Part shown: piece after piece, positions 6,691-33,877 of the stretch | Layout of the letters: each line of letters opens with the position of its first letter | Numbering within the stretch: the first letter of the stretch is position 1 | Origin: Prorocentrum cordatum | Taxonomy: Eukaryota | Reading direction: 5' to 3' | Assembly: GCA_963575745.1 (NCBI GenBank) | Contig: CAUYUJ010000045.1 | Span: 1 to 64,000, forward strand | DNA: 64,000 nucleotides | Translations under genes and position numbers: made by a program | Notes under the pieces: generated by a model | What the model saw: the letters and a program-made list of their open reading frames with translations, nothing else | Database searches by the model: none | What the model was told of the DNA's origin: nothing

Positions 6691-6691
6691 A

Positions 6692-9666: not shown

Positions 9667-9680
9667 GGTTATCAGCCGAA
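9667..9680 (+). promoter_or_regulatory. Putative primer-binding site (GGTTATCAGCCGAA)
   Basis: Immediately follows the 5' LTR and is absent after the 3' LTR. Resembles half-tRNA PBSs (GGTTATG...) of copia/Ty5-type elements. Confidence 0.6.
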
Positions 9681-9990
9681 ACCCGCGACCAAGTCGCAAC
9701 AGGGATGAGCTATGATGAGACAGCCGAATTGCCCGTCAGAGCCGAGCTCGCATCACAAGTTGTACAACATGACGGGCAATAATCACAGGACGGCGGCCCG
9801 GGGAAGGGCCGCCCTCCCTCTTCTTCTATCGCCACTCGGGTCTCTCGTGGGAGGAGGAGGGGAAAAAGTTACAGATTTGTCCAGAGACGATTCCCCTTCT
9901 CGGATTCCGATCGGCGATCGTGAACAAACTCCAGACCCGACGAGGCGGGACGGCACAACAGCAAAGATATGATGAGGAGCATTCTCGTCG

Positions 9991-12900
9991 TTGATTGCCG
10001 TATCTTCGGACACGGTAAACTCCAGCCCGATTGCTACGCGGACTATTGTGCCGGCCGCTGGCCAAGCCAGTGGGTCGGGAGAAGCTGAAGGGCCCAGAGG
10101 CGTGTGCCCCACCGTCCCAGACGGATGGGGAAACGCACAAGGGACTCACCCCATCCCGATAGCCCTAAACGGACAGACCGGCCAAGACAGCGACGAACAG
10201 TTTGACGATGGAAACGATATTAACTGCGTGGAGGAAGACATTGAGTATGCCAATTATCAAGCGTCGCTTGGCCGAGATTTGTCTTCGATAATGGACGCAG
10301 AGCACCCCGTCCAAGTTGAGAGATGGCCCCCTGGGCAGGATACAATTGATTACCATCAAGTGGAAGCCCTCGGGGAAGCGTTTGCAATGCCAGATTCGGA
10401 CATTGAGATATGTGACCTGACGCCCCAGGCGGTCGAGGTGGAAATGGAATGTCAGACTCGAGCGAAGCATGACCGGGAGATCACAGGACGAACTCCCGCT
10501 CCTCAACTCAAGAAGCAGAAGGATGAGGATTATGACTTGAATGATTCTCCGCTTCAGAAAGGGTTCCATCGAACTGCCGTCGCCGCAGGCGATTGGCAAC
10601 CATCGATGCCCGTTGCAGTTGAGGATGATGAAATGATCACCCCCCCGGCTTCGCTGGACGAGTTGCTTAGACAAGGCGAAAGGGATGAGGAGCTTCGAGA
10701 GGCGGCTAGACCGCCAGAGAGCACGCACACACGTCCCAGATCGAATGCTTCGAGCCGGGGAAGGCCCAAGATGCCCAGATCTGGAGCTCGATCCACTTCA
10801 AGGAGCAACAGCACGATATCCATGCGCGAGACATGCTGGAACAGGAGCCCCAACTGCCCGCCCCGGGCGGGGAACAGGTGCCCGGGGAAAGCCCGCGTGC
10901 CGAGTGGGGCATGTAGGCGCCCAGTATGTAGAAGTTGCTCTGACGTGTGCCCGAATTGTAGCAATCAGTGGTTGCGTGTAGGCTACGTGCCGACGGAAGA
11001 GCATAATTGCTCGTGCCTTCTCATCCAGGCGATGCAGAATCAGGCTAGATTTGTTGAGGCCAAAACCCAGCGGGAATTTCTGGCCCGCGAAGCCCAGAGG
11101 GCCGAGAAGGCCCGACTGGACCGAGAAGAAATGAATGCAGTCGTTGAGGACGTTCGGAAGACGTTCGAGGCTGAGAGGCCCGCAATGGCCCAGGCGGTCA
11201 GAGAGCGGGAACAAGAACTGGTGGAACAGATGCCCCATCAAACCGCGGCTGCCAAGCAGCGCGCGGAAGAAGAAGCCGAGAACATATATGCTGAGATGAT
11301 CGCCTCCGAACGACAGGCCGTTATGACGGCGAACAGTCAGTCTGTTGATGCCGAGACTACATCCGCCGCCGTTGCGGCGGCGAGAAAAGAAGGAGAGAGG
11401 ATTGCCACAGCCAGGGCAGCACAAGAAAGACAGGAGCTCCAAGAACAACTTCAAACTGCCAGGCTGGAAGTGGCCAACGCCCAGATTGTAGCTGCGACGA
11501 TAGTTGATCAGAAAAATCAATATCGAGAAGAGCTTAAATTACATGAGAATGCCAGAGCATCTCTGCAGCGTGTGCAATTGAGCGACAGTGCGCGCCCACC
11601 GGCCAAGCCGGCTGGGGCGAGTAGACGGCCATCGCCGGCGGCCCAGCCGTCCGGCGAGATGCCCATGCCGCAGCCGCAGCCCGCAGAATGGGGCGACGAA
11701 GAGGGTTGCTCGATTTGCTTCAATCCGATAGTAGGAGATTGCGCCACCTGTGGATTGCCGGGCTGTAAAGATCACTTCGACGCGAGCGCCAAAGGGCGTT
11801 CTGCATGCACTCAAAAGAAGAGCTTGCCGGCAGAACAGGAGAAGTGGGACGAGCAGTGGCAAAAACGCAGTGATGGCCATGACTTTCGGGCTCAACAGCA
11901 GAAGCTTCTCGACGAATGTAGCGCTGACAAACTTCATGTTCAGCGAAGGAAGGAGCAAGCTGAGGAGCAGATTAGACTGAGCTCAGAAGGGTCAGCTGCC
12001 GACATCCGGGAGAAGGATGAGGCCCTGGCACGCGCAGTTGCATCAGAGAGAGAAGTGGTGAAGCTCAAAGCTATCATCACAAAGCCTTTTCCATATGGTG
12101 AGAAGGGGCAGGGAAAATTGCCCAACTTCAGTTCATTTGACATGCCTTTGCTTTCACAAGAAACGCCCGTGAGGCCTGTTATGCGACCCAACTTTATTAT
12201 TCCTGGCCCTGCAATCGAATGTCCGGCCAAGCCGAGTACCTCCGATAATGGTTTACCAATCAATATGAATTTCACAGGTACCAATGACGACATGGCTTTT
12301 GTCGATTATCATCCGTCCTCCAAGGATGGACCTGCGAGACCGCCAGCGGCCAAGCCGTCTGGCGGAAACAAAGACCATGCGCCAGCGGCAACGCCGTCGG
12401 GCGGGGCAGGACAGGATAAAGATGGAGATCACAGTAGTGTCGCACCAAGTGCAGATATTTTGTCGGCACTTACTGATGCCATCCGCGACCGGCCAGAGAA
12501 GCCGCCGCCGGGGAGTCCGGGGGGACCTGGATCCCCAGGCGGTGGAGGCGGTCGCGGCGGACCTCAGGGCCCAGGAGGGTCACGTGACCCGGGAGGCCTT
12601 GATGAGAGTACTCCGTTGGGCCAGTGGAGACATGTTGGAACCAATCAGAAAGTCGATCTGATGGACATTCCCGATGTTACAAACATACGGGAGTGGCAGA
12701 TGCATGCAGCCCGCGCGATTGCTGGATCATCTCCTGAGATTCAAGCAGCACCGCGTTGGATCACGGAAGCTATGGACCCTGCAGTGGATGAGGAACAGCT
12801 AAAAAAACAGGTCGCTTCAACGTCTTGGCATCATGATCGCCACGCATTTGATTGAGAAGTTCACCAACATGCGTAGGAATCGCGGTCTGTCCAATCATCA

Positions 12901-13942
12901 CATACACTTCCTTCAACAGATTAGTCGAATGGAGTACGGTGCCCAGAATGAGGAGAGGCTCTTGACGGGACGTGAGATGGTACGAGCCATTTGCTACTGG
13001 TGTTCTGTTAGATCGGAGTTAAGTCAACATCGCATTTCGCGTGATATCTTCAAGGGAGTCGTTGACTCAAATAAGCCAGATGCTGACTTATATCATTCTT
13101 ATAATGGATGGACAGACGTTTACCAACAGCTCTACGGCGTCCGACCTCCATCTGATGAGATGAGAGCTTCGATCCAGGCGCACTTCATCGAGCAACGCAG
13201 GAAGCCTAAGAAGTTAGACTTCGTGCGCCAACTTTACGACTTGTCCAGAGACAATTTAGGAGAAGGCGTAAGGTCTTACGAATGGCTCATGACTCAGATT
13301 GAAGGGATGATGTTGCGTGACGAAGAACGGAACATCAGCATGCATGAGAGTGTTCTGAACCAACGTGCCCGACGGGCGCGACTGGGCGGAGGTGGAGGCC
13401 ATGGCTATGACAATCGTCGAAATGCCAACGGCAAAGCCGCTCCGGCAGAAGTGGCAGCGCGTCTCGGGAAACCCACGGATGTGATGAAGAGTGGTTTGAC
13501 GAAGGGCGAGACGACGTGCAAGTCTGTGCGCAAGGACCAGACCTGCCCGAATGCATGTCAGGGATGCCCATTTAATCATAAGAAGCCAAAGGCCGCCGCA
13601 CCGGCCCAGCCGATCTTCCTCGCTCGGTGGATGAGGCGACGCCCGCGTCGGTCAAACCGAGAGCGGGGGGGAAGGAAGGTGTCCGCTGGCCAAGTCAGCT
13701 TGGGCGCCATTGCGCGCCCCGCCCGGTTAGCTCGGGGCCTTCCTGGGCAGAAGCAGGCCGGCCCTCATTTTTCAAAGGCCTTTATAAATTCTAGCGGAGG
13801 AGTTGACAGGAACCCCTCCGGTGGAGAGTTTCACCGCGAATGCGGGGAGCAAGTTGAGAATATTGTAAACATCCTCGCAAATTTCCTGCATCCTCTTGCT
13901 CGGGACGCTATCAAGATGTACTGGAGCGACCCCCCCAAGTAA
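9991..13942 (+). pseudogene. Extended gag-like region (Cys-rich fingers, coiled coil, Pro/Gly tracts, CCCH finger), frameshifted near 12.8 kb
   Basis: ORFs 9991-12855 and 12833-13942. Motifs CSIC..CATC..CKDH and CKSVRKDQTCPNACQGCPFNH. Positioned between the PBS and the protease. Confidence 0.7.
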
Positions 13943-14057
13943 AAGCTGCATTCGATCTCAGATGAAGGGTCGGCGCATGTTCCGCGCCCGATTTCGCCCC
14001 TCGACTGAGGAGCCCGCCACCACTTGCAGGAAGGCGCATCGCCGCGACCTGAAATAG

Positions 14058-14888
14058 TTGCCCTCAAGTGACAAAGACAGGTGGAAGTTCCCAGGGGAAA
14101 TGCGCCTACAGATGTCTACTCAGTCGAGAGCATCTGCTGCGGAGGCCCTGATCAGGGCGTCAGACCTCCAAGATGACGTCTGGCACCTTTGGTTGAGGGC
14201 TGAGGAAGGGGAAGAGGGCCCACACGGCACAGCCGCTGCGGGATGCACAGATAAGGATGGTGCGTATCTTGGAGCGCTGAGCTTTATTATTGATACAGGG
14301 TGTGGGTATAACCGCATAGCGGAAAAGTCTATTAAAAGTGCAGGTGCAATGATATTGATTCGAAAGTTTCCGCAATCGATCACTCTGAATACTGCCGGGG
14401 GAGAGTCACGAGCCCTCGGTTCCGTTCGCATAGCATGCCTTAAATTTAAGGGTGGTAGTTTTAACGCTTTAGTCATGCCGGAGACCCCGTGCGTGATCTC
14501 GGTAGGAGAGCGGTGCATGGATCGCGGCTTTAGTTTCTTCTGGCCAGCAGGCCAAAGACCCTACCTATTGTTGCCCAACGGTCAAAGAGTGGACCTGATC
14601 GTTGAGGGCAAGATTTCATACCTGACCCTTTCAGGCAAATTAGAGGCGCTGGGTCAGTGGATGCGTGAGGTTGCCGCTGGGGAGAGTGAACCTCCCGAGC
14701 GGTGGTGTTGCGTGACGCCAGGCGCTAAGGCATTTCTGGGCAGTGTGGAATCAGCGGGAGGCCCTCCGCCCCATGCTGTTCAGACTCGCGTGACCATAGA
14801 CCTGCATACACATGAGTTGATTGGCAACCACAGCTACGTTGACGGACGGCCGACTGAGCTCGCGCCCGTTTTTTTCCGTCCTCCTTAG
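14058..14888 (+). pseudogene. Retroviral-type aspartic protease
   Basis: FIIDTGCGY (DTG at 14292), flap-like LNTAGG, and ISVG. Confidence 0.85.
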
Positions 14889-14995
14889 ACTCTGCGGATA
14901 CCATCACTTATTTTTACGATTCGCCTCGCAAGGCTAGCGAAAGCGGTTGGAATCGGACACCGACCGGCATCGCGGCCTCCAAATGTTTTTCGATT

Positions 14996-16090
14996 TTGCC
15001 TTGCCACGGCCAAGCCGTTGGTCAGACCGACGAGCAGCCCAGCAAGGCCGTGGCCTGCGCAGCCGCATATAAGAACTCTTGTTGGCACGGGGTCTCAGGA
15101 TATCTCCCCTATGACATGGATCAAGGGTTGGACTCCGATGCGCGCGACGCGGCCCCCGGGCCCGAGGAGGGTGACATCGGAGACGCTGACGGTGCCGACT
15201 TAGTCGTCGTCGACGCACCGCCAGAACTCCACCCAGATGATGCAGAGGTTGAGGTGTCGGGTTCCCTTGCCGAGCGGCTCAAAAAGGCAGCAGCCCCCCT
15301 GCCGCATCTTCTAACTCATACTCCCAAGAACCCATGTTGTTCAGTATGCAATTGGGCCAAAACTATCAGAAGACAGCAGCGCAAAGCGCGCAACAAAGGG
15401 CTAAAGGTTCCCCGCCCATACGCTAACCCCACTTCGTTTGGGCACCTGGCGACGATGGACCATTGGTTTGCGATGGATGAACTCTCGCGGGGGCTCCATG
15501 ATGAGACCGCGCGCGTGATTTTTCGCGACCGAGCAACGGATTTCCTCGCCGCTCAGGGTGTACACGACAAGTCTGCGGCTCATGTTTGCAGCTTTTTAGT
15601 AAACCTCAAAGCCCCAGGAGAGAAGTTAGAGCATTGTTCTACCGATGGTGCACGTGAGCTTGCAAGGGCACGTTACGAGCTCAATATTGCACATGATCCT
15701 ACCATCCCAGGAAATAAGAAACAAAACGCTGTCGCCGAACGTGCGAACGGCGTGGTACAGATGGGGACCCGAGCGCTGCTCATGCAGGCGGGTCTCCCAC
15801 CACCATACTGGACGTATGCCGTTCGATACTTTTGTCTTTGCTACAATGCCAGGGCCCCTGAAGAGGGGAAGTCCAGTTGGGAACGTCGCTTCGGACACAT
15901 GTTTGAGGCTCCGCTTCTTCCCTGCGGGTCTCTCGTGCGCTATGCACCCCCGCCAGAGTCAAGATTCAGAACAACCAAGACTGGCGTCGCAATGATCCCT
16001 GGGATATACTTGGGATGCGTGCACAAAGCGGGGGGGCATGGTTGGTCCAGGAAGTTGCGTTATGCCGTTGAGACAACTGGGCGGACTTAA
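14996..16090 (+). pseudogene. Integrase (HHCC + rve core)
   Basis: HLLTH..KNPCCSVC; MDHW; STDGAREL; NAVAERANGVV..GTRALLMQAGLP..YW.YA; PGIYLG. Confidence 0.9.
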
Positions 16091-17550
16091 CATGGAATCT
16101 GGGCGCACGCCCGAGGGCAAACGACCCACCATAGAGAAGTCTGATCAGGTATACAGCAACATCTTGGACGGCACTGCGGAATATCAATCTCCTCAGTTTC
16201 CTTTGAGAAAAGCGTACGGGCAGGCAATGACTGAGGTGCGTTCCGTCACGATCCCTCCCGCAGGAGAGGCCGCGGCCGTCCCAGACTGTCCGCGGCAGTT
16301 GACGGGAGTGCGATCGGACAATCTATGTGGCGCAGATGAGCCTGCCATTCTCATGCCACCGCCTCCTCAAGAAGGCGAGGGCGCTCCACCACGAGACTCC
16401 GAGGCCGATTCCGATGATGATGACGGCCCGGGGGGCTTTATGCGTGGATGACGAGCCTGTGGTGATTGATGGCCGGGACCCACAGCGAGACTCTCACCCA
16501 GACGAAGATAATGACAAGATGTTAGGTCTCGCACATATTGTGTATCGTTTGGATCGACAATCGAACTTCTCAGCGGCCAAGCCGCGTGAGAAGGTCCCAG
16601 GGAAAGGGCGGCTCCTTGCCCGTGCGACCCAGAACCTTGATACGATAGAATACTTTGAGGACGGGCGTATCGTCGTTGGTCTGACGAGAGAAGAGTTGAC
16701 ACAAAAGCTCCCGTTAACAGGCCGTCGCAAGACGTGCAGTATACGTGTTGTACTTTACTATGTTCCCGCGACCCGTGCGTGGGTCGCAGATCCAGATCCT
16801 AAATACGGAGCTCAATGGTTGAAGAAATTGCCTGAATCCACCAACCCTGGAGTTCATCCTGGACGCTGGTTCAACATGAATCAAGCCCAACGTCGGCAGG
16901 CCGTCGAGCAATACAGGGCCGAAAAGAGAGGTTTCTTTGATATAGACGATCCTGGCCCTTGTCTTGGCCTCCTGCGTGACATAGGCTTGGACGTGGATGA
17001 CCCGCCAACTCCGTCCGAGCCCGCAGTGGCCCAGCCACCTGCCGTCCGTCCAATCTCTGAGGAGACCGAGGCCTACATTGCGAAACATCCTAAGGCAAGA
17101 AGAGCCGCACCGTGGGTTGCTGAGCGGTTTCGTCGTCTGGCGGCGCAGGGCGGCCAAGCCGCAGCTGTAGCTGCCGAGTCCTCTGAGGAGGATGATTCCG
17201 ACGAATATGTTTCGGGTGATGAGGATGTTTGGTGGAAGCAAACATGGTGCGGTGGTGCCGTAGCACGTGGCGGCGTTCCTTCCGGCCCAGCCGGCAGGGA
17301 CCCGTTATCCGATTATGAATCTGGGGCGACGCTAGAGGCAAGTTTGACCTTGAGTCCGGCGGCCGCCGCGTCGCGGCGAAGCGTGCCTCGGATGCCGTTG
17401 CCGAGGAGTTCGGCTCCAATGCCTAGTCACCGCGAGAAGGAGAAATTTGATATGGATTACTTATACAACCCTTTTACTGATCTCATCTCAGTTGTCGACG
17501 AGCCCTTCCAACTTCGCAGTGATTGGCAACGTGCTAAGATTGATGCCGCA

Positions 17551-18230
17551 GTAGCTCGCTGTGTTTCCAGAGATGAGGCCAAGGCTAACCAAGATGCCCA
17601 GGCCGCCCTCAGAAAGGAATGGAACATATTTCGAGACATAGGCACATGGAATGAGAGAGGGGTTAGGAAATATTTCGATGTTGTTGCGGAACTCAATGGA
17701 AAGACCGCACACTTTGGTCGTCTATTCGCAATTCTTGTCGGGAAAAACTCATAGTTGCCACTCGGACACAAAGATCGGAAATACAGTGGTCGGGTAGTTT
17801 TCGACGGTTCGAGCGAGAGATCAGAATAAGGATGTTGCTTTATTTCAAGAACATTCCAGCAGTCCTGCTACAATGCAGGCCAGCAAAGCAGCTGACACTT
17901 ACGGGCTTTTCGAAGGCCGTAGTATTGAACCAGCCGGCGCACGTCAGGCTTACACTCAGTCAAAGTTGGGTGGCATTCCAACGTGGGTATTCCTACCCCG
18001 CGATGAGTGGCCCAAAGAATGGTCGCGCATGCGCAATCCCGTATGCCCGTTGTTTCTATCTTTATACGGACACCCTGATTCGGGAGGATATCGGGAGCAA
18101 CGCTGCGAAGGGCATGTTACGGCTAAAGGATTTGTGAAATGTAGTCCGTGGCGTAGCTGCTATTTTCATAAGGAGTTGAAGCTGTTTTTGATAATTTACG
18201 TTGACGATTTTAAGCTGCCCGAAGGGTCTA
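17551..18230 (+). pseudogene. Copia-type reverse transcriptase (RVT_2-like), interrupted
   Basis: ALRKEW..GTW; AYTQSKL; LSLYGHPDSGG; IYVDDFKL (YVDD at 18197-18208). Internal stops and frameshifts. Confidence 0.92.
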
Positions 18231-18759
18231 GGAATAGACCCTGCGACCGCGGTCGGACGATATTTGGGCTGTGCACACAGACTGTCCACGCAGTTTGTTG
18301 AATGGCAAGGTGAGTTACCCACGGTTTTGGACCCGCCGCCTCCCAAAGTCAAGAAGAATGCCTCCGTCCCGGACGAGAGTAGCGAGGAGGAAACGGGGGG
18401 GGGCTCGGCGGCCCAGCCGCCCGAGCCATACCAACCGAGAGAACCCAAACAGGCCAGAGTCATAGAATACGACATGACTGACTTATTCGAGTCTTGTGCC
18501 ACTTTATATGCACAACTCACGGATACTGACCCAGCTACTTATCCCGCTGCGGGTACCCCGTTTGGACCCGAACTTGTTGACCTTGAAGACGGTCGAGGCG
18601 GCCCTAGAGGTGAAATTTGCTCTCCTGCAGAGGAAGCAATCGCCTCCGCGTTACATATCAAAATTGACGTTGGCCCCCCAGATCAAGAAATTGTGGTTCA
18701 CGGCTTTGACGCCGCAGCGGCCAGCCCCAATGGCCCGGGGCCACCGACCCAGTCGGGAG

Positions 18760-19440
18760 TGCTCCAGCCCATAGCGGCGAAAGCCTTGGTGAAGATCCTT
18801 GACGGTGCAAGGATGGCTCGATATGACTTGCTCCGTGCCGTGTGCCACACGGCCAGTTGCATTACTAAATGGACAGAGCAACAAGACATGGATCTTTCCC
18901 GCCTCATCTGTTACATCAAGTGTACTTCTCACGACCGTATGTCTTCATGGGTAGGTGATCGAATGGAGGATGTCTTGTCGAAGCAATACTCTGACGCGGA
19001 CCTGGCCAGTGACATCCGAACACATAGGAGCACAAGTGCCAGTTATCAAGCAATTTGGGGCCCATGCACCAGAGCTGGGCAGTCTATGGGATCTCAACGA
19101 CAGACGTGCGTTTCCCATAGTACTCTAGAGGCAGAAGTTGTGGCTGCTGACCGTGCCCTGCGAAAAGAGCTGCTTGCAGCCCTTCCGCTTTTGGAAATAT
19201 TGCTTGGAAGAGAAATACGTTGTTTGTTTTTAGAGGACAACCAGGCGGCGTGTAAGGTCATCAAAGCTGGATGGCCCATGAAGCTCATGCATCTACCGCG
19301 AGACCATCGCATTGATGCTGCAGCTGTGTCCGAACAATGTTCTCGAGGTATCGCTGGACTTCAGTACGAAAGGACTCAAGACGAAGCTGCCGACATTGGA
19401 ACGAAGAGGTTCGCATACCCTTTGGCTTGGGTTAAGGTAT
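18760..19440 (+). pseudogene. Copia-type RNase H
   Basis: ARMARYDLL; YSDADLASD..RSTS; SQRQTCVSHSTLEAE; EDNQAA; ADIGTK. Confidence 0.92.
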
Positions 19441-20049
19441 TATACCTCGTCAGCGCTGTGACTCCCAAATTTTGGCCCGCCAAGCGGCACCAAGACTATT
19501 TAGATTCAACGTGTTCAGACGGACCTCCCCTGAAACCCGGGGGGATTCTGAAGCCCCGCTTAGGTCCGAGTTCGGCTTTGCGGAGAGGAGCTGTTGCACC
19601 TAGCAAAAGGATGAACATGAAAAAGAAGCGCCCCAACAAGGGTAAGCCCGTTGTGCATTCTTCGAAGCGCCAAGTGCCCGGCTGTTACCGAGGTTGCCCC
19701 CGGCCAAGCCGCGGTGGCGAACGCTCCCAGCCAAGCTTCGGTGGCGAATGCGCCCGGCCAAGCCGTGGAAGCATGTGAAACTATTCATATTACGACCGAA
19801 GAAGGTTCCAGGACAAGCTCCGAGAAATCCAGAACGATGGAGGAGATAACCAAGGACAGCTCCGAGGTTGAGACGAGAGCGATGTTTGATATAACCGACA
19901 GCGGAACCGAGTCTAATACATCGAATTTGGCAAAAGAGATGTGCGAAGAACGATCGAGCGTTGAGCCAGTTAACGTTAAACAAGATATGCTCGGATACAA
20001 CCTTCATCTCCCTCGCCTTCCGCCTGCTGCTGCTGCTAACTTCCAGGAT

Positions 20050-20340
20050 AGGAGGGATCAATGGACACAACGCGGACAGAGTCTTAAACGATGGCGCTTT
20101 GTTCCCAGACTTGTCACGTTTATACCAGCGAATACCGATTGCCGGGTTGACCCGGACTGATTAGATGATAGACGTCGTACCTATGCCATCAACGCCCAAC
20201 ATGGTTTGACTGTAGATCGTACGGATAATTGGCGCGACGAAGATAATAAATATCATCACCCCTTCGAACAGAATTCGAACGGTGATTCCACTGATGGCGA
20301 CTATCACCCAAGTAGATGGACCGGCTGGACGGAATTCGGG
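20050..20340 (+). other. Small Trp-rich module (DxW..R..PR..F.P...DNW...WTGWTEF) of unknown function
   Basis: Read through a single in-frame TGA at 20158-20160, joining ORFs 19651-20160 and 20206-20490. Confidence 0.45.
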
Positions 20341-20385
20341 ATCCGGGAGGAATGCGCCCCGGCCACCGAGTGGACCGGGGACCGA

Positions 20386-21020: not shown

Positions 21021-23314
21021 ATTGTTGTTGCTCGTGCCGCGGAGCGCGTGTTGTCGTCTCGTCGTCGTCCCATCTCATCCTCTGATTTCGTATGTGGCGC
21101 TGCCGTTTTGTCTCCAGAGCTTGCGCGGGCTGCCCAGCGGCCGGCCCCCCCTCGGACCGCGCGGCCGCCCTGTTTCGGCTGCGCGGGCCATGCCTGCCGC
21201 GGCCCCCGCGCGCCGGAGAGGTCATTGACCAAAGCCATGTGCCAACCGCTGGGAACCCCAGCGGCAAAGCCGTCGGGGGAGGACATGGCTTCGGTTTGCT
21301 CGGACGATATCATACACGAACTCGTTCCTGAGTCACCTGAGGACGGGGAACCTCAGGTTGAGCCCAAAGGAAAGGCTCCTTCCAATTCAAGTCGAAAGGC
21401 TACCCCACTGGCCCAGCCAAGTGGGGATGCCGCCCCGCCGGCCAAGCCGGCTGGGGAAGTGGCTGATCCTTTTAGTCCGAGCGATGTCGTGATGAATGAT
21501 GACATCGAAATGGAGGCTGGCGTAGAGATTCACGCAGAAGAGATCGCAGCTCGCATAAGAGCTGCTGACGCTGCCACCAACGACGACAAGAGGACAGCTA
21601 TCTCCTCGCAAGGGGATTGCAATTCCCGCGAGGAGAAATCCATCTTCCGTTGCTTTCCTGACAAGAGAGAATGGTCCAGGCCTAGTTATGCCGGGACTAT
21701 CAAGTTCGCACGCAAACGGGGATGGAGCCGGCGCTTCACGATGTGGAGAAACAACATATTATACAGACGGGGCGACCAAGTCGTCACCGCACATCCCAGA
21801 CGATCTTTGAGCGTCTGTTTTCCCAAGTCTCACAAGACCCGTGGACCGCCCATTGGACTACGACAGAATGGCAACGTGCCGTTTTGATTCTGCTCCCCCA
21901 GAACTTGACCAGATCCCAGTGGGTACTTTCTTTCAGTCGCATCTTGATGCGATGACGAAGCTGGTTTGCAGGTTGTATACAAACGCACCGGGGGAGACTC
22001 GACGCTCCGTCTGAACCCTCGAAAAGGGAGAGGTCGTGGGCCCCACTGTTGGCCCAGCCATTCGGCGAAAGACGATCTACGGAGACTTTGTGAGCGTCCC
22101 AGTAAGGGACACCAAGACAGAAGGTGCTCCCGACTTGTGGATGAACATCTGGGGCCCTTCACCACATATGCCTCCCCGTGGCAAAGCCATTGGGGGCGGT
22201 TGGAGCACGATTTTTGCCCTGCCTGTTATCAAAGGTCTGTCTTATACGCCAGTGCATGTTGTTGAGGAAGCTCTCGCCAAATCAGCCAGAGCAAATTAGT
22301 GTGAGTTTTCCCCATCAGCAGGCGGTGCATTGGCAGAAGGCTGCACCTCCGTGGACACGCCTATACGACTTTGATGCATGGCTCGCGAGGGATGGCCTTG
22401 ATGGCGATGCTGACTTGAACGATAAGCAGCCGCCTCAGCCAGACGCAGAGACTGAGGCCAACCAGCACGACCCAGTCGTTGCTGGAGAGAGGCCAGATCT
22501 GCTTGAAAATTCCGAACAGCAACGCCCTGAGGCGCCCTCGGAAGGCCCTCCTGGCCACAGAGAGGAGGGTCCTGACCGGGCGCCGAAAAGGCCACGCTTG
22601 GGAGCGGAGATGTCGACCGACCCAGTCGGTTCGCCAAGCAATCATGCGAACGTAGCCATCGCGCAGCCTTCGGCCGGATCCGGCCCACAAAAGCCATTGG
22701 ACAGTCCTGGTGCTGGTCGGCAGGCGGCCGGCGGAACATCCGCTGGGTCAGCCTCGAACCCGACTGCCCCGCCCGGCCAAGCCGGTGGCGGGGCGGGCGG
22801 AGGCTCTCCTCCCGGCCCAGCCAGTGGTGGAGGTGCTCCGTCTGGCCCAGGTGGCTCTCCCTCGGGAAGCGCCCCACCTTCCGGCAACCCCTCTGGGGGC
22901 GGCGGTGGAGATGGACCCCCAGATGCGGGGTCGACGATGGCGAGTGGCGAGGGTGATGGCCCGCCTTATTTTGGGCGGGGCCCCTGGAACGTCCTCGACT
23001 ATTATTGGGCAAAGGGAGAGTATGCTCCGAACCCCAGGCCGCCGACGAATGACTGGGAATCTACGGTGAATGATATTCTCAGGCTTCACGTGGACATCAC
23101 AGATCCCAAGTTGAAAAACTGGGCATTAAAGTTGTCGTTCCTTTAGAAGTGCCAGGCCATAACGCAGATTGCCCGACAGAACGGACACTCATGGATTCCA
23201 TTTGTTGGCGAGGACGTTGCGGCCATGATGGCCGCAGGCAAGTCTGTTAAGGACTTGTTCCGCCCTTTGTGCTTGGTGGATAATGGGACATGCAAGTTTT
23301 GGTCCTGTTACGTC

Positions 23315-23921
23315 CACATTGTCTCTGATTCAACGATCTCGTTTCGGAATGCGTCGAAGACAGTCACGCCCGGCCTTCTTCCTGAATACCATATGCGGGG
23401 TCACGTGCACGGCATTTCACAGAAGATCATGAGTGGATGCATGGCCCCTGGACTTCAGGAAGAGGCTAAGTGACTCACATGGGACGAGCATAAGTACTAC
23501 CAGAAAGGGATCCACACGCCGATGCGTTTCATCTTCTGGAACTTCAATGATATTGTTGATGGAACCGGCGAACTGAATGGAGTCGGCACAGGGGGAAAGC
23601 GGCAAGAAAATCCAACAATATCCGCTGGAAACCTCCGAATAATGGTAGAGGCGGCGGAGCGTCTGGTGGATGACGCGATCACCCGCGGAAAGGACGGAGC
23701 GATAGCGATCGTGTACGTTGGTGGGGGCCACGCATGCTGGCGGTCGGATGGATCCGGCGTAAGCCAGATGTGGGATGATGTTGCCACTCTCGTCAGGGCT
23801 CGAATGAACCGTCGGATTGAAAGCTACAAAGCTATGGCGATTTTTCCGCGAATAATGATTATTGACGGTGTGGGCCTTCACCGCAAACTGCGGCACCCGT
23901 CATGGGGATTTCTACCACTTT
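23315..23921 (+). pseudogene. SGNH/GDSL hydrolase-like domain
   Basis: Four blocks in order: HIVSDS (GDS-like), MSG, FWNFND (GxND-like), GDFYHF (DxxH). One in-frame TGA at 23471 and one frameshift. Confidence 0.55.
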
Positions 23922-25327
23922 TGTTCCGACCGCAGTGACTACAAGGTGGATGAGAACGGACGAGCGGCGAATGTGAAGGCGGCCCAGTTATGCGCTGAGC
24001 ACATGTTTAAGGCAGCCAAACTCGCCGCATTGTTCTTCTGCCAACCCTCCGGCGGCCCAGCCGTTCAGTGGGATGGGAGAACAAAGGCGAAAAGAGCCGA
24101 TGGGTATAAATTGCAAGACGCTACCATTGATGAGCTAGTCATGTACTTGCAAGACTGGAGCCCCACTGAAGGCAATGTGCCCAAGTCCGTGCTCAATACT
24201 CGCCCGTTCGAAGTAGCCTTGAACCCCGTGGAGTTCCCAGCCGTCCAAGACGGGTCTGGGGGCGGGGCGATCCATTCTTATTATTCCGATGCATTCATTG
24301 AATTTTTGAAGCGAGGGAATGCATATACAGGCTTTTTCCCGAGGCAAGATGATCATTACTTCATGTCGCGAAGTCGGATCTTTAGTCCGGGAATGCCCCC
24401 AAGAGGGAAACGCCTTCGACTGTCAACTGAAGGAGTGCAAAATGATGAACACATGCGCACGGCAGTTGATGAGTTTAAAAAGGCAGCACCTGCTACGGCA
24501 CCGAGCGGCCAAGCTGCCTCGGGCGAAGTTACTGCGCCGAGCGGCCCAGCCGCCTCGGGAGACGTTGCTGCGCCGAGCAGCCCAGCCCCCTCGGGTTGCG
24601 TTGCTGCCACGCGGGCGGCCCAGCCACCCCGCGGACCCGTTCTGGCCCCTGCAAAGGGCGTGCAGGATGTTAAGACACCTGGCGAAGCCGCGGAGGAAGC
24701 TCTCCGCATCAAATGCCCTGTCGGTCAGGCAACCACGCTCAGCCAAAAGTATAAGTTGCCAAAGCGCTTGAGAGTAGGCGGCGATCCTGACCGCCCTCAA
24801 GATTGGGAACTAGATTGGCCTGTGCATCGGACATACCAGAAAATTATGAAGTTGCCCTACACAAAAGCGCGCCTGACAAGGATCTAGTCCTTCACGATTT
24901 CCTCCGACCATTCACTGTGGCGAGCGGTGAGCTCTACAGACGCATGATGCCTACGAACGATTACCCGGGGGAAGAAGGCCGCGTTGAACGAGTGGCGCAA
25001 GGGGATAACCTGGCCCGCAGCAAGCAAGTCAATCTGATTCAGAGACACGCTAATGGAGAGGCGTGGCTGGGCTTTCAGATGCTGCAGAGGTCCACGAAGA
25101 CCCCAGTTTTGGAACCTAGTCATGTGGTTCCAAATTGGGCACGTTTCTTTGTGATTAAAGCCGATCGATCGTGTGCGGACCCCAAGGCTACCGTTGCTGA
25201 TCGCCTGAATTGGGCGAAGTTGTCAACGAAGGCCCACAGGACGGGCATCGATCACTGCGTTCAGCTGACTTTGCCATTCTATGTAACGGACGAAAAGCCT
25301 GTGGAGGTCCAAGACCCATCCACAGGC

Positions 25328-25640
25328 TGGGCCAGACAGTCCCACGGTACGCCTGTGACCGCCCTCCATTCTATTTTTGGAGGGCCATCAGCTGCTTACA
25401 TCCAACCCCCAATACGGAGGGATTACCAAACAGAACAAGGTTGGTGTATATTCATTTCCATGCACCAACAGTCCTGCCACGCATGCGACATATTCTGTCG
25501 CAGAGGAAACCTTTGGAGTCGGCATCTGGGCAACTGCGGAGATCTTTTTCTTCTCAAAGCCCCCAATCATCATGGGAAAACCAGATCAGTGCGTTTGCGA
25601 ACCATCTGAGATGGTATTGTATGAGCTTCGCCTCTACCAT
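25328..25640 (+). pseudogene. ADP-ribosyltransferase (PARP/H-Y-type)-like domain
   Basis: SHGT (25340-25351)..LHSI, a frameshift, then GVYSF (25443)..HATY..DQCV..VLYELRL. Confidence 0.55.
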
Positions 25641-28078
25641 TGGACTCCTGCGGCACTTCATTTCGCGCCAGCTTATGCCTACTTGCAACATGTCGCCAGA
25701 CAGAATAATTGGCCTGTGGAGCAAGACTTCGGGGTCGAACGGCATCGCGACAAAGCAAGGGAGGCTGCCACGGACCAAGTCCAGGAGGCACAGAGACAGT
25801 GGGTCCCAGATTTGGCACCCATTGATTGGCAGAAGGATCGAAGCCCTTATTTTGAGAACAACAGTAACTTCGACGATATTTGGCCATGGTTCCAGAAGAA
25901 AGGAGTCAGGCCCACAAAGATCCACCCGTTGCACAAAGACGAGGCTTCGGATGTATCGAAGGCGCTCGCCCAGGCTAACAAGGACAGAGACGAGGAGGCC
26001 AAAGCCAAGTCGTCGACGAGTGCACAGCAGCAGGCGCCGGCGGCAAAGCCGTCCGGCGCATCCTTTTCGCTTGGTACAGAGGACTTCCCACCTTTGGGAC
26101 AGCCTGCGGTGCGCGCTGGGAGAGCGCCCAAGTCTCCGCTCGGCAAAGCCGTGGCGGAGGCGTGGCCCCCACTTCCCAAAGTTGATGCACTTGCGAAAAC
26201 GCTTATGCCTCCACCCCCTCTGAGGGAGGGGCCATCACCAGTTGGATCAGCAAGCGAGGTGCCTAAGAAACCTCCGCCGCCCAATGCGATGGCGCCGCCG
26301 CCTGCTGCGAAGCCGAACGTCGCGCCGAGGAAGGACTCACCTTCACTAGAGAAGACGGACGCTGCGCCGAAGAAGCCTCCGCCCCCACCTCATTCGAGTC
26401 CAGAGGCACGTGCGCCGAAGCCCCCGCCAGCTAAAGTGGCGCGCCTCGGTACTGGAGCTGACGATCTTCCTGCATTCAAAGTTGCACAGCCACCGGCCAA
26501 GCCGGGGGTCTCGGGGACAGCGGAAGGCCCGCCCAAGCCTTGGGCACCGAGCCTTCGCGATCCCGACCCTATTGTCAGGCTCGACAGGTGGAATTTTGAT
26601 CGTTCGTCGCAAGCTGACCAAAATCTTCAGAAAGCTGGGGCCACGCCCAAGGCGGCGCCTCAGTGGTGCCGAGATCCGGGATCTTCCCAGCCTGCCCAGG
26701 GCAGTGCTGGGATGGACCAGACTGCAAAGGCGGAGAGCTCTGCCGCAAAGGCAGCGGCAGTTGAGACAGAAGTCAGAACTGCCGAGGATGTGAGCTCTGA
26801 TCGCCACGGAGGCAGTGAGAGGCCAGAGTTTCCTGCGGAATCTATTCCGAAGCAGACGGATGGAGATTCCTCGTCAGAGGAGTCACCTCAGCCGCGGGGG
26901 GCCGACGCTGCAACCGTCATTCTCAGATCTCTCCGAGAAATCTCCAAGACGCACTTCACGGGCAGGCAAGCACGTGGAGCACTGAGGAAAGAGAATGATT
27001 TCTTTTACCAGTGGTGTCGTACTGTTGCTGACCGGCCGCAAGAGGCCGAATATCCCGATGATTTGTTGGACATTGAAGAGTTTGTTGGCACAGCAGAGAG
27101 GATCTACGAGAAGGCTAAGATAAAGGGGGAAACATGAGCCGGGAAAATATTCGGAACCATGGAAGAAGTTCGCAAACGTCGTTGTTGAACACATCCGTCT
27201 GGTCGCGCCAGATATTGTTCCTACTCCAGTGATCGCCGCCAAGAGCAACAAACGTTCAAAGCCTCTCGCTGAGGGCGGATCTTTTGCGAGTGGAAGCAAA
27301 CTTCCTCCCCCCCCTGCTCCTCCGCCCGGCCCGGCCGCGACGGCGAGCTTACCTGCGCCCCCGCCTGGCCCGGCCAGAGCGGAGGCCGAACAGGCGAAGG
27401 GAGACAATGATGGTAGACTCGGGCGCTGATGCTGGATCACGCGCTGCGCCTCCAGAGGTTGCCGCGTCTTCCCCTGCCAAGCCACGTTCTACCGACGAGG
27501 AGGATGCGCCCGTTGCAAAGGCGCCGCCGCCAGTTGCCGCTCCAAGTGGACATCGCGCAGCGGAGCCTCCCTCCGTGGATCGAACCCCGGGTGTCCAAGA
27601 CACTCCGGGGTCCCTTGAGGCCAGTCCAGATCTTACCCAAATCAGTGGCTTCCCGTATGAATCGGGCCCTGAGCTCATTCCCATCGAGGAAGAGCATTAC
27701 CGATCTGGCCCAGCCTCTGCCAACTTCTGCAGAGAGCGGTTGCCACCTGCCCCTGACAAGCGGCAGCGTCAGCCCACGGACGATCCGCCCCAAGAGGACG
27801 ATCAGGAGATTAATGTCGGGCACGCTGACCACTTTAGGGGCAGAGAGCTGTATATTTCGCCGGACGAACGCATTCGAGTTATTCAGCGCGCGCCCCCTGA
27901 TCTAAGGCAGAGGGCGCGAGAGGCCCACATGATTGGTCCTGTCCCCCCGCGGGGAGAGGCCATTCGCAATCAGTCGAATAGTGCGCTCAGATGCATAGCA
28001 GAATTCGTTCAAGATCCCATACTTGTATTATTGAGCGAACTTCCCATAGACGAGGGCACCTTCGATTTGGCGCGATAA
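25641..28078 (+). pseudogene. Long Pro/Ala/Lys-rich low-complexity cargo ORFs
   Basis: ORFs 25377-27137, 27229-27429 and 27284-28078 are all on the element's sense strand. Confidence 0.55.
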
Positions 28079-28270
28079 TTTCTCAGTGCTGAGTTTTACT
28101 CCGACGATATTCCCGACGGATTTGATCCCCAGTCTTTCAAGTTTTTGAAACCATTGGTTGTTGGGGTCGATGATAGCAATAATCCGGCTGCCCTAGGCAG
28201 TGCGGATTTTAGGAGACCCCAAAGTTACCGAGTAGACGAGTTTGCCCAGCGCGTCGGCGACTGCGCAACG

Positions 28271-29064
28271 CATCTCGCGAGGCATTGTTCTGATGACGCG
28301 AAGTCCCTCGGGGGGCTGGGTCTACTTTGGAGGCCTGGTTGAGAAGATGACCGCGGACGGATTTGAATATCAGACATATGCACCTGCTGCGCACGGCCTA
28401 GCCGCGTTGCAGCAGGGAGCTGTGGAGGTCTTCGGTGTGCTTCCTGACGACAGTGCCAGCATCAGTGAGACGTCCGTTTACATGATGTGGCGCAACTACA
28501 AAGCATGGCCCTCTCAAGAGGCGGAGCGGACTACCTCTCCCATTCCTGTTTTCTATCGAGCGTGCCGCATTCCAACATTCCACTTTTGTTGCTTCAATTG
28601 AGAGAATGCACGTGCCCTATGACCCTGGCCTAGCCAGGTGTCATGGGCCCCTTCTCCAAAACACTGATATGGAGACTCTGTTGGAATCCGCGGTCGGAAA
28701 AGTGCAGTTCCCGAAGAGAGTCTCGGGGCTTTGCTTCGAGGCGTACTACGAATTGCTGAGGCTTCTCCTGACCAAGACGGATCCAAGTATGCAAGGCCAA
28801 GATCATCTTCCTTCGTGGCTAAGCCAGCGGAGGTATGGCGACCCTGCTCCTGCGAGGAAGCACATGGCCATGGGTAATAGCCCACAGCCAGGAGAGCCAC
28901 CATCAATCGGAGCATGGCCCGCAGGGGACACAGTCCTTCTGTGGGACCAGCTGCCGACTCACAGAGAGTCCTGGCCATTAATTCTTGTTTTCGATGGCCG
29001 TGTGCTCACTCGTTTTTCGTACCGGATCTGCCAGGACGGGACTCTTGTGTCCCGTGAAGTGCCG
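28271..29064 (+). pseudogene. Tpt1/KptA (RNA 2'-phosphotransferase)-like domain, divergent
   Basis: HLARH, GGWVY, FYRA followed by a frameshifted HS (cf. IRAxQGHS), ARKH (cf. RxHIH), PLILVFDG..QDGTLVSREVP. The HGT position reads QNT. Confidence 0.4.
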
Positions 29065-31616
29065 AGGTTCATTGATATCGACAAAGCCGCCACCCTTGTC
29101 AAAGTCAGCGACTGGTATGATCACAAAGAAAAGAACATGTTTATGTCTAGGTCAATTGTCTTCAACCAAGAGTGGACGTCATACGAGGCAAATCTTGATA
29201 ACACCTCAATGCTCGTCTGGATTCATACTGACGAGACTTTGTCATTGATCCCAGATCATATACCTCCATTGCTTCCCGCGGCAGAAGCATTTGTTCAGTC
29301 TGTCCCCTGGGAGGACGATGGTCGGTTCCCTTGCGCTAACTTGCACTGGGTGCGAACTGACTTTGGTCATTGCCCCTCCTGCAACAATCCGATCAAGTAT
29401 AAATGCAAGGTTGCCCACGATTATTTGCTGCAGTCGTACCGACATAAGGTCATTCCAACTTCGCTTGAGAAAACATGCATGTTGTTGCATGTTATCGATC
29501 CCGATCAGCTCCCTTACGAGCGTGATCTTTACGTTGGAGCGCGAGTAAACAGACAACGGAGAGCTTCGGCAGATGTAATATACAACACCAGCAACAATCT
29601 GCAGCAGGAGCGCAAGTGGACAACAAATAATCAGTACAATCGCTTGGATGCTTCGGGTCACTCCTTTGGAAACAGCCGCGCGGGTATTGTTCCTGCCTGG
29701 ATTCCTGACCGCGCCGCGGCCCAGCCGCCGGCGCGTCACCGCCCTTTCTTTCAATACCTCGAGCCTGTGAAGAGGCGATTCATTAAGCGGCTCGCACACT
29801 TGGCTCAGAGAGAAGCGACTCCAGCCCCAACGATCGCAGAGTGCTGGCCCACTTTGGGCCACAGAAATTGACCAGTATGCGCGTTCCATGTATTGCCCTG
29901 CTCTGGATGCCTTTGACTGGCCAGAGGAACCTGACACACGCTTTGAACCAATCGAAGGTTGGTTCCAATGGGAGCGCAACGTGGCTAAGGCGAACATCTT
30001 CGTGCCAACGTTTCGGACATTGCGCAATGCAAAAGATGGAACAGCACCCTGGCTGCCCATTGACCAGGGCAACGCCATGGACGTCGCGGGGCCCAGCCTA
30101 CGTGGACGTCCACCGGTTGCTTGGGAAAATATTTTCGTGGCACGTCTTCGTCGTGCTTCCCAGTCCGTCAGTAGGCGTGACAGAATGTGTTCCGAACACC
30201 CTCTCGTTTCAGTGTGCGCGCATGCCAAACCTGCCGCCGGTCCAACCGTGACGGCAGGTCAGGAGAATTTACACATGACCCTTGATTTCACTGCAGTCTG
30301 CGGGTCCCAGACCGAGCAGATAATTGGCGGGAAAATCAATCTTGATCAGCCCAATGGGTACGTGCATTCCCATCGCGACGACAAATCGTTGAACGTCGCC
30401 GTGACCGAGGATGGAGCCAAAGAAGTGGCCGCTCAATATGTCATGGAGCACACCAGCTATCGCCCGGAGGCAAATGACCCTGAACTATTACGACTATCGG
30501 GTGAAGTAACGCACGAAGCCCCAGAACATGTGCGGAGCACCATTGATTGGAACTCGAAGGTCCCTGTTCCAGCGCTGGAGTTGGGCCTTCACATTATTCG
30601 TGTGATTGTGATTGTTCGCGAGATCATTAGTTGCTTCGTCGCAGAGGGACATTGCATTGCATACCTTGGGGCTCACTTTCTTGCCCAAGGCACCGGAGTA
30701 TATTACAATGATGACAAGCGTCGAAAGGATGCATGCGCCCTTGATTGCCGCATTCGTGTGGCGATTGAGACAGACGACCTCATTGAGGAATGGGCCCGTA
30801 ATTTGGGTAAACAGGCTCGTAGCGATATCCGCTGTCATGGCATGAAGTTACAAAAAGCTATTTATTGGCTATACCCACATGTGGAAGCCACTGGGCTTCA
30901 AGACAAAGATGAAGGCCACTTTCGCGGTGCCCGCGGCAAGTTTGGTATTATTGTTGCCACTGCCGCAAGGGACACTATTAGATTCGCCAGAAAGCGAGCG
31001 ACTACTATTCGTGAGAGAGGAGGCGCCGATGGGCCCCCCGACGGCCAAGCCGATGCGGAGGAGCCCGCCTTGGCGAAAGCGAGGCCCAGACCGCCGCCTC
31101 CTCCGCGCAGACCCGACGTCCAAGACGATCGGACTAACGATGAAGTCACGGAATATCCGTGCTCTGCTGGCGGTCAAACCGCTGCGGCAGGATATGAGTA
31201 TTCATGATATTCGTCTGACAGGGACACGCGGAATTGGTCGAGGCCTACGCGCGCGCGGCGGAGCCATGGATGTCGGGCGCGGTGCTGCTGGCTACGACCC
31301 CTCGAAGCACTGCCCGCGCTACGCCAATGATGCGCCGGATGGATACTGGGCTCACCGGGGCGTGATGTCCTGGATGGGCCCGAGGGGGGGCAAGTCTCGA
31401 GCGTGGCATGTTGCGTGCCTGAACGACTACAACTACTACTTTCCGAGGAAAGGAAAGGACTCCAAGAACAAGAACAAGCGCAACAGGCCAGCGCCTTACG
31501 CTGGCCGCGGCAAGGGATTCAGATCCCGCTCGCCCCATTGGGCCGCAGGTCAGACGGGGGGCTCGTCATCTTCACATCCGAGACCTCCGTCTCCGCCATC
31601 GCGGGGATATCTTTAG
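29065..31616 (+). pseudogene. Unknown cargo ORFs up to the 3' LTR (CxxC motif; basic C-terminus)
   Basis: ORFs 28606-29871, 29888-31207 and 30879-31616 on the sense strand, ending ~240 bp before the PPT. Confidence 0.55.

Positions 31617-33181: not shown

Positions 33182-33877
<696 letters not shown>

Follow-up and report, generated by a model that had tools for sequence, protein, structure and literature searches.

Introduction

Single-stranded RNA viruses can carry dispersed packaging signals, and the accounts of packaging-signal-mediated assembly by Twarock and Stockley (PMC6281560) and of an enterovirus-E example (PMC7793301) are reported to describe many stem-loops spread through the genome, coding regions included, which share a loop motif on variable stems and hold little information each. 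In those non-retro RNA viruses the contacts lie between capsid and RNA and have reportedly been shown by systematic evolution of ligands by exponential enrichment (SELEX), cross-linking or structures. The packaging signals (Psi) of retroviruses and of yeast Ty1 and Ty3 are reported to be localised (PMC4974528, PMC8096270); Psi is a single complex structure in the 5' leader or at the start of gag, and zinc fingers of Gag or nucleocapsid select the RNA through exposed stem-loop bases. Here we describe a 64,000-nucleotide stretch of Prorocentrum cordatum DNA (assembly GCA_963575745.1, contig CAUYUJ010000045.1, positions 1 to 64,000; hereafter the window) that contains a 22.8-kb retrotransposon bounded by long terminal repeats (LTRs), and we report that the internal region of this element (9666-31864, + strand) carries 70 sense-strand triloop hairpins, 33 of them GGC-MMA-GCC sites (M being A or C) and 37 with other stems.

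Like the dispersed signals of RNA viruses, these hairpins present a shared loop on variable stems and are spread over coding regions, on the sense strand only; the difference is that the carrier is an LTR retrotransposon with a putative CCCH-type Gag reader. With Psi they have in common that the first hairpins of the window likewise adjoin a primer-binding-site-like sequence in the leader, whereas Psi is one complex structure and here about 70 simple hairpins extend over the whole 22 kb. Because the last site has its loop at 31651, some 200 nt short of the 3' LTR, a localised Psi signal was rejected as an account of them. The usual Gag zinc fingers are of the CCHC type, whereas those considered here are CCCH. 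Literature searches, with subscription journals outside their coverage, returned no earlier description of such hairpins in retrotransposons. We regard it as very probable that the hairpins are a selected nucleic-acid structure of the sense strand.

Abundance and strand polarity of the hairpins

An earlier sequence-only reading of the window had noted about 30 copies of a GGC-MMA-GCC mini-hairpin scattered through a copia element. All 30 positions that it gave are exact + strand matches to GGCMMAGCC, and the count proved low, with three more copies on the + strand (14226, 22180 and 27707) and one on the - strand (25325). The whole window holds 36 copies, whereas 100 dinucleotide shuffles gave 5.49±2.43 and never more than 12. 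The element contains 33 of the 36 on the + strand (10060-31051) and the one - strand copy, while two fall outside the element (45930 and 54635), where the 41 kb of flanking sequence, mostly tandem repeats, is a poor control for motif frequency. The loops on GGC/GCC stems are CCA in 14 cases, CAA in 13, AAA in 5 and ACA in 1 on the + strand, against 1, 0, 0 and 0 for their reverse complements, a result that answers the check for strand bias proposed earlier. The optional outer C and G of the proposed motif were likewise well chosen (C at -1 in 26/33 sites, G at +1 in 24/33); further out, the surroundings are C-rich at -8 to -4 and G-rich at +12 to +15. The 11-mer CGGCCMAGCCG has 19 exact copies, every one on the + strand and in the element.

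The GGC/GCC form is real, yet it proved too narrow a description, being the commonest of several covarying stems, and related elements share the trait with other loops. When any perfect 3-bp stem is allowed, the internal region contains 36 CAA loops (6.0 expected; 4 of the complement) and 28 CCA loops (6.3 expected; 7 of the complement), so that the wider class NNN-C[A/C]A-N'N'N' comprises 64 sites where about 12-16 were expected. These 64 and six GGC-stem sites with an AAA or ACA loop form the set of 70. Their density is even, each 2 kb between 9.7 and 31.7 kb having 4-11 of them, in the core of the element and in its downstream cargo alike, and neither LTR contains a hairpin with a CAA, CCA, AAA or ACA loop. 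Spacing is near random and hence uninformative (coefficient of variation 0.75-0.91 in the window and in the related loci L032, L024, L031 and L030; 1.09 in the related locus L001).

A signal in the nucleotides

The 33 copies of GGCMMAGCC compare with 2.9±1.6 (maximum 8) in 300 synonymous-codon shuffles that kept every amino acid and with 1.0±1.0 in 300 codon-order shuffles; for all CAA/CCA hairpins the count is 63 against 15.7±4.0 under synonymous shuffling. Within the longest local open reading frame (ORF), translation of the 33 sites gives [P/A]-A-[K/Q]-P (phase 2) or G-[Q/P/K/T]-A (phase 0), with one or two also in phase 1, and the AKP and AQP translations listed in the sequence-only reading belong to phase 2 and GQA, GPA and GKA to phase 0. 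The 70 sites divide 29/11/29 among the phases, which are mixed within 11 single ORFs; in one of these (16303-17751) the frame is backed by homology to L001 (residues 81-483). The excess over synonymous shuffles and the use of three codon phases thus identify GGCMMAGCC as a nucleotide-level signal and not a peptide, as had been proposed together with the codon-preserving shuffle as its test.

One could instead envision codon bias together with a recurring peptide (P-A-K/Q-P-S-G) or a low-complexity linker. About half of the GGC-stem sites do read [P/A]-A-[K/Q]-P in one phase, and the hairpin context is richer in Pro, Ala, Gly and Ser (0.45 vs 0.33), but the shuffles that yield 2.9±1.6 copies rather than 33 preserve the peptide entirely, all three phases are in use even within single ORFs of homology-confirmed frame, and the tripeptides encoded in intact relatives are highly diverse. 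We find this explanation scarcely credible, and a peptide motif as a sufficient cause was ruled out by the synonymous-codon shuffles and by the mixed phases in single ORFs.

Structure of the hairpins

The GGC-MMA-GCC 9-mer is the apex of longer hairpins. Taken with 16-nt flanks, most sites form helices of 8-13 pairs whose lower stems are site-specific, as in ...CCGCCAGC-GGC CAA GCC-GTCTGGCGG... and ...GTCTCCGCTC-GGC AAA GCC-GTGGCGGAGGC...; the 3-bp "mini-hairpin" of the sequence-only reading is a hairpin indeed, drawn too narrowly, as it is the tip of these helices. Contiguous Watson-Crick stems peak at 4-5 bp, and with small bulges the helices average 10.3 pairs. The mean folding energy of the native sites is -18.0 kcal/mol, compared with -13.6±0.56 kcal/mol when the downstream flanks are swapped among sites (0/1000 permutations reach the native value), -13.0 kcal/mol with shuffled flanks and -9.0 kcal/mol for random 41-mers of the element.

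Under the fixed CAA/CCA loop, the stems covary (GGC/GCC 27, GAC/GTC 7, GTC/GAC 7, plus others). In the alignment of all 70 sites pairs 1-3 are paired by construction and the outer pairs are unselected; the fourth pair is formed in 60/70 sites (CG 40, UA 9, GC 6, UG 3, AU 1, GU 1), the fifth in 39/70 and the sixth in 27/70, and the covariation score of these unselected outer pairs is 0.606 against 0.178±0.021 when shuffled and at most 0.218 with slid partners. In a 203-nt context, the median probability of the closing pair is 0.83 (at least 0.5 in 46/70 sites), compared with 0.03 (19/70) for control hairpins with other loops. A search of Rfam 15 with both strands of 9000-32500 gave no match at the gathering score.

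These structural features also bear on double-stranded DNA sites for a host or element protein, one form of the DNA-binding site that the sequence-only reading had offered as an alternative. The dyad GGC...GCC has symmetric half-sites, and its extended form adds an inverted CGG/CCG, as such a site might; yet the strand ratio is 33:1 with an asymmetric loop, the stems vary freely while the loop is fixed, and flanking complementarity of about 10 pairs would be needless for duplex binding. The strict strand polarity of the loop disfavours this alternative, which we rate as very improbable, and a peptide motif and a duplex DNA site can both be considered effectively excluded.

The individual apices, all on the + strand, are given here with their folding energies in kcal/mol, computed with 16-nt flanks. 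Those of sequence GGCCAAGCC are at 10060-10068 (-21.9), 11601-11609 (-21.0), 12225-12233 (-8.4), 12348-12356 (-21.0), 15008-15016 (-11.7), 16575-16583 (-19.7), 17152-17160 (-25.4), 19702-19710 (-18.4), 19756-19764 (-12.2), 21440-21448 (-24.5), 22775-22783 (-29.0), 26495-26503 (-16.3) and 31043-31051 (-21.1). Those of sequence GGCCCAGCC are at 11640-11648 (-26.1), 13603-13611 (-5.7, no extended stem), 17028-17036 (-11.8), 17284-17292 (-25.5), 18410-18418 (-24.7), 21410-21418 (-22.6), 22051-22059 (-8.8, no extended stem), 22814-22822 (-16.1), 24054-24062 (-16.1), 24543-24551 (-14.9), 24617-24625 (-15.4), 27707-27715 (-3.6, no extended stem; newly found), 29718-29726 (-23.7) and 30090-30098 (-20.7). 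Sequence GGCAAAGCC is found at 13430-13438 (-9.9), 21263-21271 (-16.4), 22180-22188 (-20.3; newly found), 26042-26050 (-22.9) and 26142-26150 (-26.3), and GGCACAGCC at 14226-14234 (-12.8; newly found).

The 37 hairpins with other stems, also on the + strand, have loops starting at 9690, 10117, 10425, 10597, 11253, 12066, 12320, 12446, 13653, 14825, 16281, 16558, 18749, 18845, 19481, 19732, 20363, 21008, 21777, 22472, 22622, 23389, 24246, 24710, 25310, 25776, 26648, 26944, 27596, 28266, 29251, 30242, 30307, 30686, 31121, 31175 and 31651. The first of them, GCGAC-CAA-GTCGC at 9685-9697, lies in the non-coding leader 8 nt after the primer-binding-site-like sequence, with further hairpins following in the leader; the last, at 31646-31658, about 200 nt 5' of the 3' LTR, is an identical 13-mer. 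At 24500-24630 a unit of about 36 nt occurs three times in imperfect tandem (APSGQAASGEVT / APSGPAASGDVA / APSSPAPSGCVA), with apices at 24506 (one mismatch), 24543 and 24617, from which it follows that a few hairpins were multiplied through local duplication.

Hairpins in related elements

A scan of metagenome contigs identified 75 loci that encode relatives of the RNase H region of the element, several of them intact elements; a search for relatives in viral contigs found none. The closest relative, L001 (62% RNase H identity), has no GGCMMAGCC at all. It carries 24 hairpins with a TCA loop (4.5 expected), and ten of these have exact 6-bp stems of unrelated sequence, such as CGAGCC-TCA-GGCTCG and CGTTTC-TCA-GAAACG. 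Families further removed favour other sense-strand loops: TTT (53), TCT (33) and ACT (23) in L032/L035; TCT (31) and CCT (21) in L021; TCC in L024 and L031 (52 and 55) and in L045 (25); and TTC in L026/L030 (27 and 31). Copies of GGCAAAGCC seen on the antisense strand of L032 are that locus's sense-strand GGC-TTT-GCC hairpins. Beyond triloops, L005 has 15 GTGA tetraloops and L006 has 10 copies of GCTC-GAAA-GGGC, and L015 has a linear word, TTACGCAG, in 17 sense-strand copies from 509 to 10590 with no obvious hairpin, so the tag of a family may in some cases be other than a stem-loop.

All families close the loop with a C-G pair, and within a family one stem length is sharply preferred (6 bp in L001; 4 bp in both L021 and L024). 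In the intact ORFs of the relatives, which run to 2,000-2,900 codons, hairpins fall in three phases and encode many different peptides, and their numbers again exceed those in synonymous shuffles (114 vs 21.4±4.2 in L032, 112 vs 30.6±5.0 in L024 and 24 vs 3.5±1.9 in L001). Among the 26 loci of at least 5 kb, the top triloop reaches at least 1.9 times the highest any-loop count in 10 shuffles in 11, a number that includes the near-duplicates L032/L035 and L026/L029/L030, and no such motif was seen in L009, L020, L028, L065 and others of the 26. The trait is thus frequent but not universal.

Conservation and origin

Close relatives permit a comparison of divergence, in which favoured hairpins are set against control hairpins. 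In the group of L026, L030, L029, L037 and L033, which are 79-94% identical and whose pairs are not independent, bases of the favoured hairpins diverge less than those of controls in 7/8 pairs, with p<0.01 in four: L026-L029 (18/405 differing bases in favoured vs 113/1161 in control hairpins), L026-L037 (6/189 vs 83/666), L030-L037 (7/198 vs 64/576) and L026-L033 (15/144 vs 131/648). Between distant families, hairpins in the same alignment column number 23-31 in four pairs and 9-10 in two L030 comparisons, where a shift null gives about 1. We dropped this as strong evidence of conservation because control hairpins are also kept at 22-52%. Homologous placement between the window and L001 was set aside as well, since 3/5 alignable L001 hairpins lie 8-21 nt from a window hairpin and the sample is too small; these near-coincident hairpins probably just sit in permissive linkers.

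Hairpin differences between copies of the relatives are substitutions and not insertions or deletions. Gaps between L030 and L026 contain 9/84 favoured and 17/199 control hairpins, and in the other pairs of relatives the figure is 0-1. A mobile palindromic mini-insertion, present in one copy and absent from another, was rejected on this ground for the relatives. Palindromic modules of that kind are well known: the Rickettsia palindromic elements and mitochondrial GC clusters are GC-rich hairpins that are tolerated in-frame and translated into linker-like peptides. Those modules are mobile, measure tens to more than 100 nt and appear as insertions or deletions, whereas here the shared part is no longer than 9-13 nt and every site has flanking stems of its own.

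The hairpins could also be a mutational by-product, in which template switching by reverse transcriptase perfects quasi-palindromes and base editing possibly sets the loop. Such an origin would suit the C/T differences between families at the third loop base, which deamination in the loop would give, as well as the weak conservation between distant families and the lack of any difference between the two closest loci. Neutral change, however, leaves unexplained why a fixed loop and closing pair should top arbitrary stems, why stem length should be so sharply preferred in each family, or why hairpins should be enriched 5-10-fold in elements with intact ORFs of 2,000-2,900 codons; moreover, favoured hairpins are less diverged in 7/8 pairs, and copies differ by substitutions rather than insertions. 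We judge the by-product explanation improbable. In aligned hairpins, L024 systematically has C as third loop base where L021 and L032 have T (GCC/GCT, ACC/ACT, TCC/TCT), which could reflect either a change in reader specificity or a C-to-T change directed at the loop.

The probable active strand

Loop polarity always follows the coding strand. Across families, hairpins with one non-Watson-Crick pair among four show G-U and A-C in a ratio of 160:76 with favoured loops, compared with 747:626 with other loops (odds ratio 1.76, p=1.2e-4). The extended helices of the window contain 60 G-U pairs in the + strand fold vs 33 in the - strand fold, and in GCTC-GAAA-GGGC of L006 a conserved T-G pair, which becomes C-A on the other strand, pairs on the sense strand only. 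Wobble and polarity together provide modest support for the sense strand, and they apply to RNA and to plus-strand DNA alike.

Alternatively, single-stranded DNA made during reverse transcription might be the functional form, with the hairpins as sites of minus-strand pausing, priming, strand transfer or protection. G-N-A triloops closed by C-G are unusually stable DNA mini-hairpins, of which d(GCGAAGC), with its C-G closing pair and three-base loop, is an example; the antisense loops of L026/L030 (GAA, GGA and GCA) belong to this class, the closing pair is C-G in every family, and either strand folds equally well. The antisense loops of the window (TTG/TGG) and of L032 (AAA/AGA) fall outside the G-N-A class, however, wobble counts point to the sense strand, and the T-G pair of L006 would be a C-A mismatch. 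To our knowledge, no step in the replication of LTR elements uses dozens of internal hairpins. A role as single-stranded DNA thus appears quite unlikely, if slightly less so than a mutational by-product.

Candidate reader and proposed function

A CCCH-type zinc finger, CKSVRKDQTCPNACQGCPFNH, is encoded on the + strand at 13517-13579, near the end of the gag region and just upstream of the protease. It was found by pattern match, and Pfam did not call it in the ORFs of the window. The Gag ORFs of L032, L024 and L026 pass the zf_CCCH_4 cut-off of 29 bits (33.1, 34.1 and 30.5 bits, respectively), and six relatives have three CCCH fingers in the last 180 Gag residues where the window has one. The CCCH fingers of Gag invoked in the sequence-only reading thus have a counterpart in the element and in its relatives. 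CCCH fingers bind single-stranded RNA.

In the model that we favour, some 70 short stem-loops would form along the sense strand, from the leader through gag and pol into the cargo of a multi-copy element. Each would have as its tip a C-G closing pair, a C[A/C]A triloop (rarely AAA or ACA) and a G-N-C/G-N'-C stem, and would be fitted into the coding sequence through codon choices that are synonymous or conservative, for the most part where the protein is linker-like and has much Pro, Ala, Gly and Ser. The hairpins would then serve in the full-length sense RNA as redundant binding sites of low information for an RNA-binding protein encoded by the element, most plausibly through the C-terminal CCCH zinc-finger region of Gag, and would label this very long RNA as the element's own and help to collect and condense it into particles. 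Selected sense-RNA hairpins acting as redundant sites for a putative element-encoded reader are the best overall explanation that we can offer, although we hold it tentatively, and with marginally greater reserve we put forward Gag binding together with packaging as their putative role. We infer that RNA rather than single-stranded DNA would be the active form, with the Gag CCCH fingers as reader and packaging as purpose.

Several findings weigh against this reading. The closest pair of relatives, L030 and L026, shows no difference between favoured and control hairpins (34/675, 5.0%, vs 77/1638, 4.7%), a null result that would fit neutral decay after insertion. Between distant families, favoured helices are retained only slightly more than controls in 7/7 comparisons, of which two are significant. 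None of the loci found is closely related in DNA to the window's own family, and selection on the window's hairpins is argued only by analogy. The enrichment of Pro, Ala, Gly and Ser is partly due to the GC-rich palindromes and is by itself no proof of linker placement. Triloops on stems of 4-5 bp are weak RNA structures by themselves. The strand assignment leans mainly on loop polarity and modest wobble counts: in the window alone, 4-pair stems give a flat 11 G-U vs 9 A-C, with five pairs the pooled effect is gone, and the + and - strand folds are equally stable (-18.4 vs -18.1 kcal/mol). The favoured sense loops of L026/L030 (TTC, TCC and TGC) are GAA, GGA and GCA on the antisense strand, the class of unusually stable DNA mini-hairpins, which would also suit a single-stranded DNA form. 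The Psi signals described for retroviruses, Ty1 and Ty3 are localised. Finally, no RNA run with the element was present among the sequencing runs listed, a result that is mute on expression either way.

A role in the sense RNA other than packaging would draw on the same structural evidence as the packaging model. The hairpins might promote nuclear export, protect the RNA from decay or silencing, suppress cryptic splicing or polyadenylation, or pace translation between domains, with a reader supplied by the host or by the cargo. Linker-like siting and near-random spacing fit a function that depends on the number of hairpins and not on their position. Against such a role, loops differ between close families (TCA in L001, CMA in the window), which a reader encoded by the element explains more easily than a conserved host factor, itself hypothetical; we regard it as unlikely, although it is the strongest of the alternatives. 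Host readers of triloops do exist in Roquin and Regnase-1, proteins that also have a CCCH finger and recognise mainly the shape and loop of short-stemmed decay elements. Unlike the hairpins of the window, those elements lie in host 3' untranslated regions, trigger decay, usually number one or two per mRNA and are bound mainly by the ROQ domain. As a mark of "self", the hairpins would also resemble Chi, KOPS and DNA uptake sequences, short strand-specific words that are dense over coding sequence; in those cases bacterial machines read a linear word on DNA, whereas the window has a hairpin loop in a eukaryotic retroelement.

Extended to the relatives, the packaging model would describe a giant copia clade of aquatic protists in which each family has its own "hairpin code", with dozens to more than 100 copies of its particular triloop or tetraloop hairpin all along the coding sequence and with the loop co-evolving with the CCCH fingers of its own Gag, so that each family packages its own very long RNA alone. 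This is more doubtful than the packaging model itself. Such a code, if true, would be the first known use of dispersed packaging signals for assembly by a retroelement and might explain how cargo-bearing RNAs of 15-23 kb can be encapsidated. If the hairpins are tags for Gag binding, they would suggest an answer, open to direct test, to the question of how LTR retroelements far above the usual 5-9 kb single out and package their RNA, and would extend the principle of dispersed packaging signals from small RNA viruses to retroelements. Family-specific loops would provide natural swap experiments and a simple signature by which to find and classify elements in protist genomes and metagenomes. Whatever their function, the hairpins constitute a strong second layer of information over about 20 kb of coding sequence, which bears on how codon usage, synonymous rates and "linker" peptides are interpreted in such elements.

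The carrier element and its surroundings

The element is bounded by a direct repeat (9355-9654 and 31865-32164, 91% identity), which we interpret as its LTRs; direct repeat and alignment together place the 5' LTR at 9355-9665 and the 3' LTR at 31865-32175, both on the + strand and with approximate ends. Adjoining the 5' LTR is the primer-binding-site-like TGGTTATCAGCC (9666-9677, + strand), read from the sequence, which may resemble the tRNA-iMet primer sites of copia elements and may be complementary to a host tRNA; a tRNA scan of the window found no tRNA. Immediately 5' of the 3' LTR, the G-rich purine run GGGGGGAG is a candidate polypurine tract.

The pol region (14058-19775, + strand) has broken frames in which protease (DTG), integrase (HHCC, D-D-E), reverse transcriptase (YVDD) and RNase H were recognised in that order from motifs by eye and from homologues, and tblastn hits to L001 follow the same order. 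Pfam searches with 32 + strand ORFs of the window at E<=0.01 returned nothing relevant and no RVT_2 (PF07727), and against RVT_2 the related locus L032 reaches 16.7 bits and L001 16.4 bits, both under its cut-off of 31.6. The RNase H ORF has 32 homologues, the best named of which (82% identity) is a transcript-derived protein labelled Pyramimonas sp.; another, P0011, is named Ty1/Copia RNase HI, and three (P0017, P0018 and P0029) have precomputed PF07727 matches. Judged from the analysis, the host of the element would probably be a green alga. The LTRs, the gene order read by eye and the named or RVT_2-bearing homologues support the carrier's predicted identity as an LTR retrotransposon of the Ty1/copia type, in line with the sequence-only reading.

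A search of public sequencing runs found one DNA run with a quarter of the element's words. From this run, 12,782 contig pieces match at 80% identity or more and cover all 30 bins of 9900-29899, with 3,748 variant places and with insertions or deletions close to the frame breaks of the window. The contigs being multi-copy and showing such changes near the frame breaks, the element is a degenerate copy of a high-copy family, its cargo included. The proposal that the cargo is a long-term part of the element receives some support from this coverage of core and cargo as one multi-copy family and from the even hairpin density.

The intact relatives L001, L024, L026 and L032 keep gag, pol and one more ORF downstream of them in the same frame, with a single stop codon between neighbours (in L032 at 5475-5477 and 13821-13823), an arrangement that suggests stop-codon readthrough rather than frameshifting. 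Directly after RNase H there is a domain (20161-20932 in the window; 11973-12338 in L001) with motifs like EYCCG... and S-PCTGGSPWQ, which is common to 22/75 related loci and to the C-termini of the homologues P0011 and P0007. It had no match in Pfam or in a PDB sequence search, and its nearest named protein-atlas cluster, a C-5 cytosine DNA methylase, offers a lead and no more, at a score of 0.87. The cargo (21900-31800) comprises about 10 kb of further + strand ORFs, multi-copy in the contigs of the DNA run and of normal hairpin density; these ORFs matched nothing in Pfam or in the 75 related loci. The flanks of the element at 1-9300, 32400-39800, 53300-55800 and 62700-64000 consist mainly of tandem repeats with periods of 9, 12, 15, 89-90 and 102 nt, among them an 89-nt satellite rich in G (1-2950) and an array with a 90-nt period (35550-37300).

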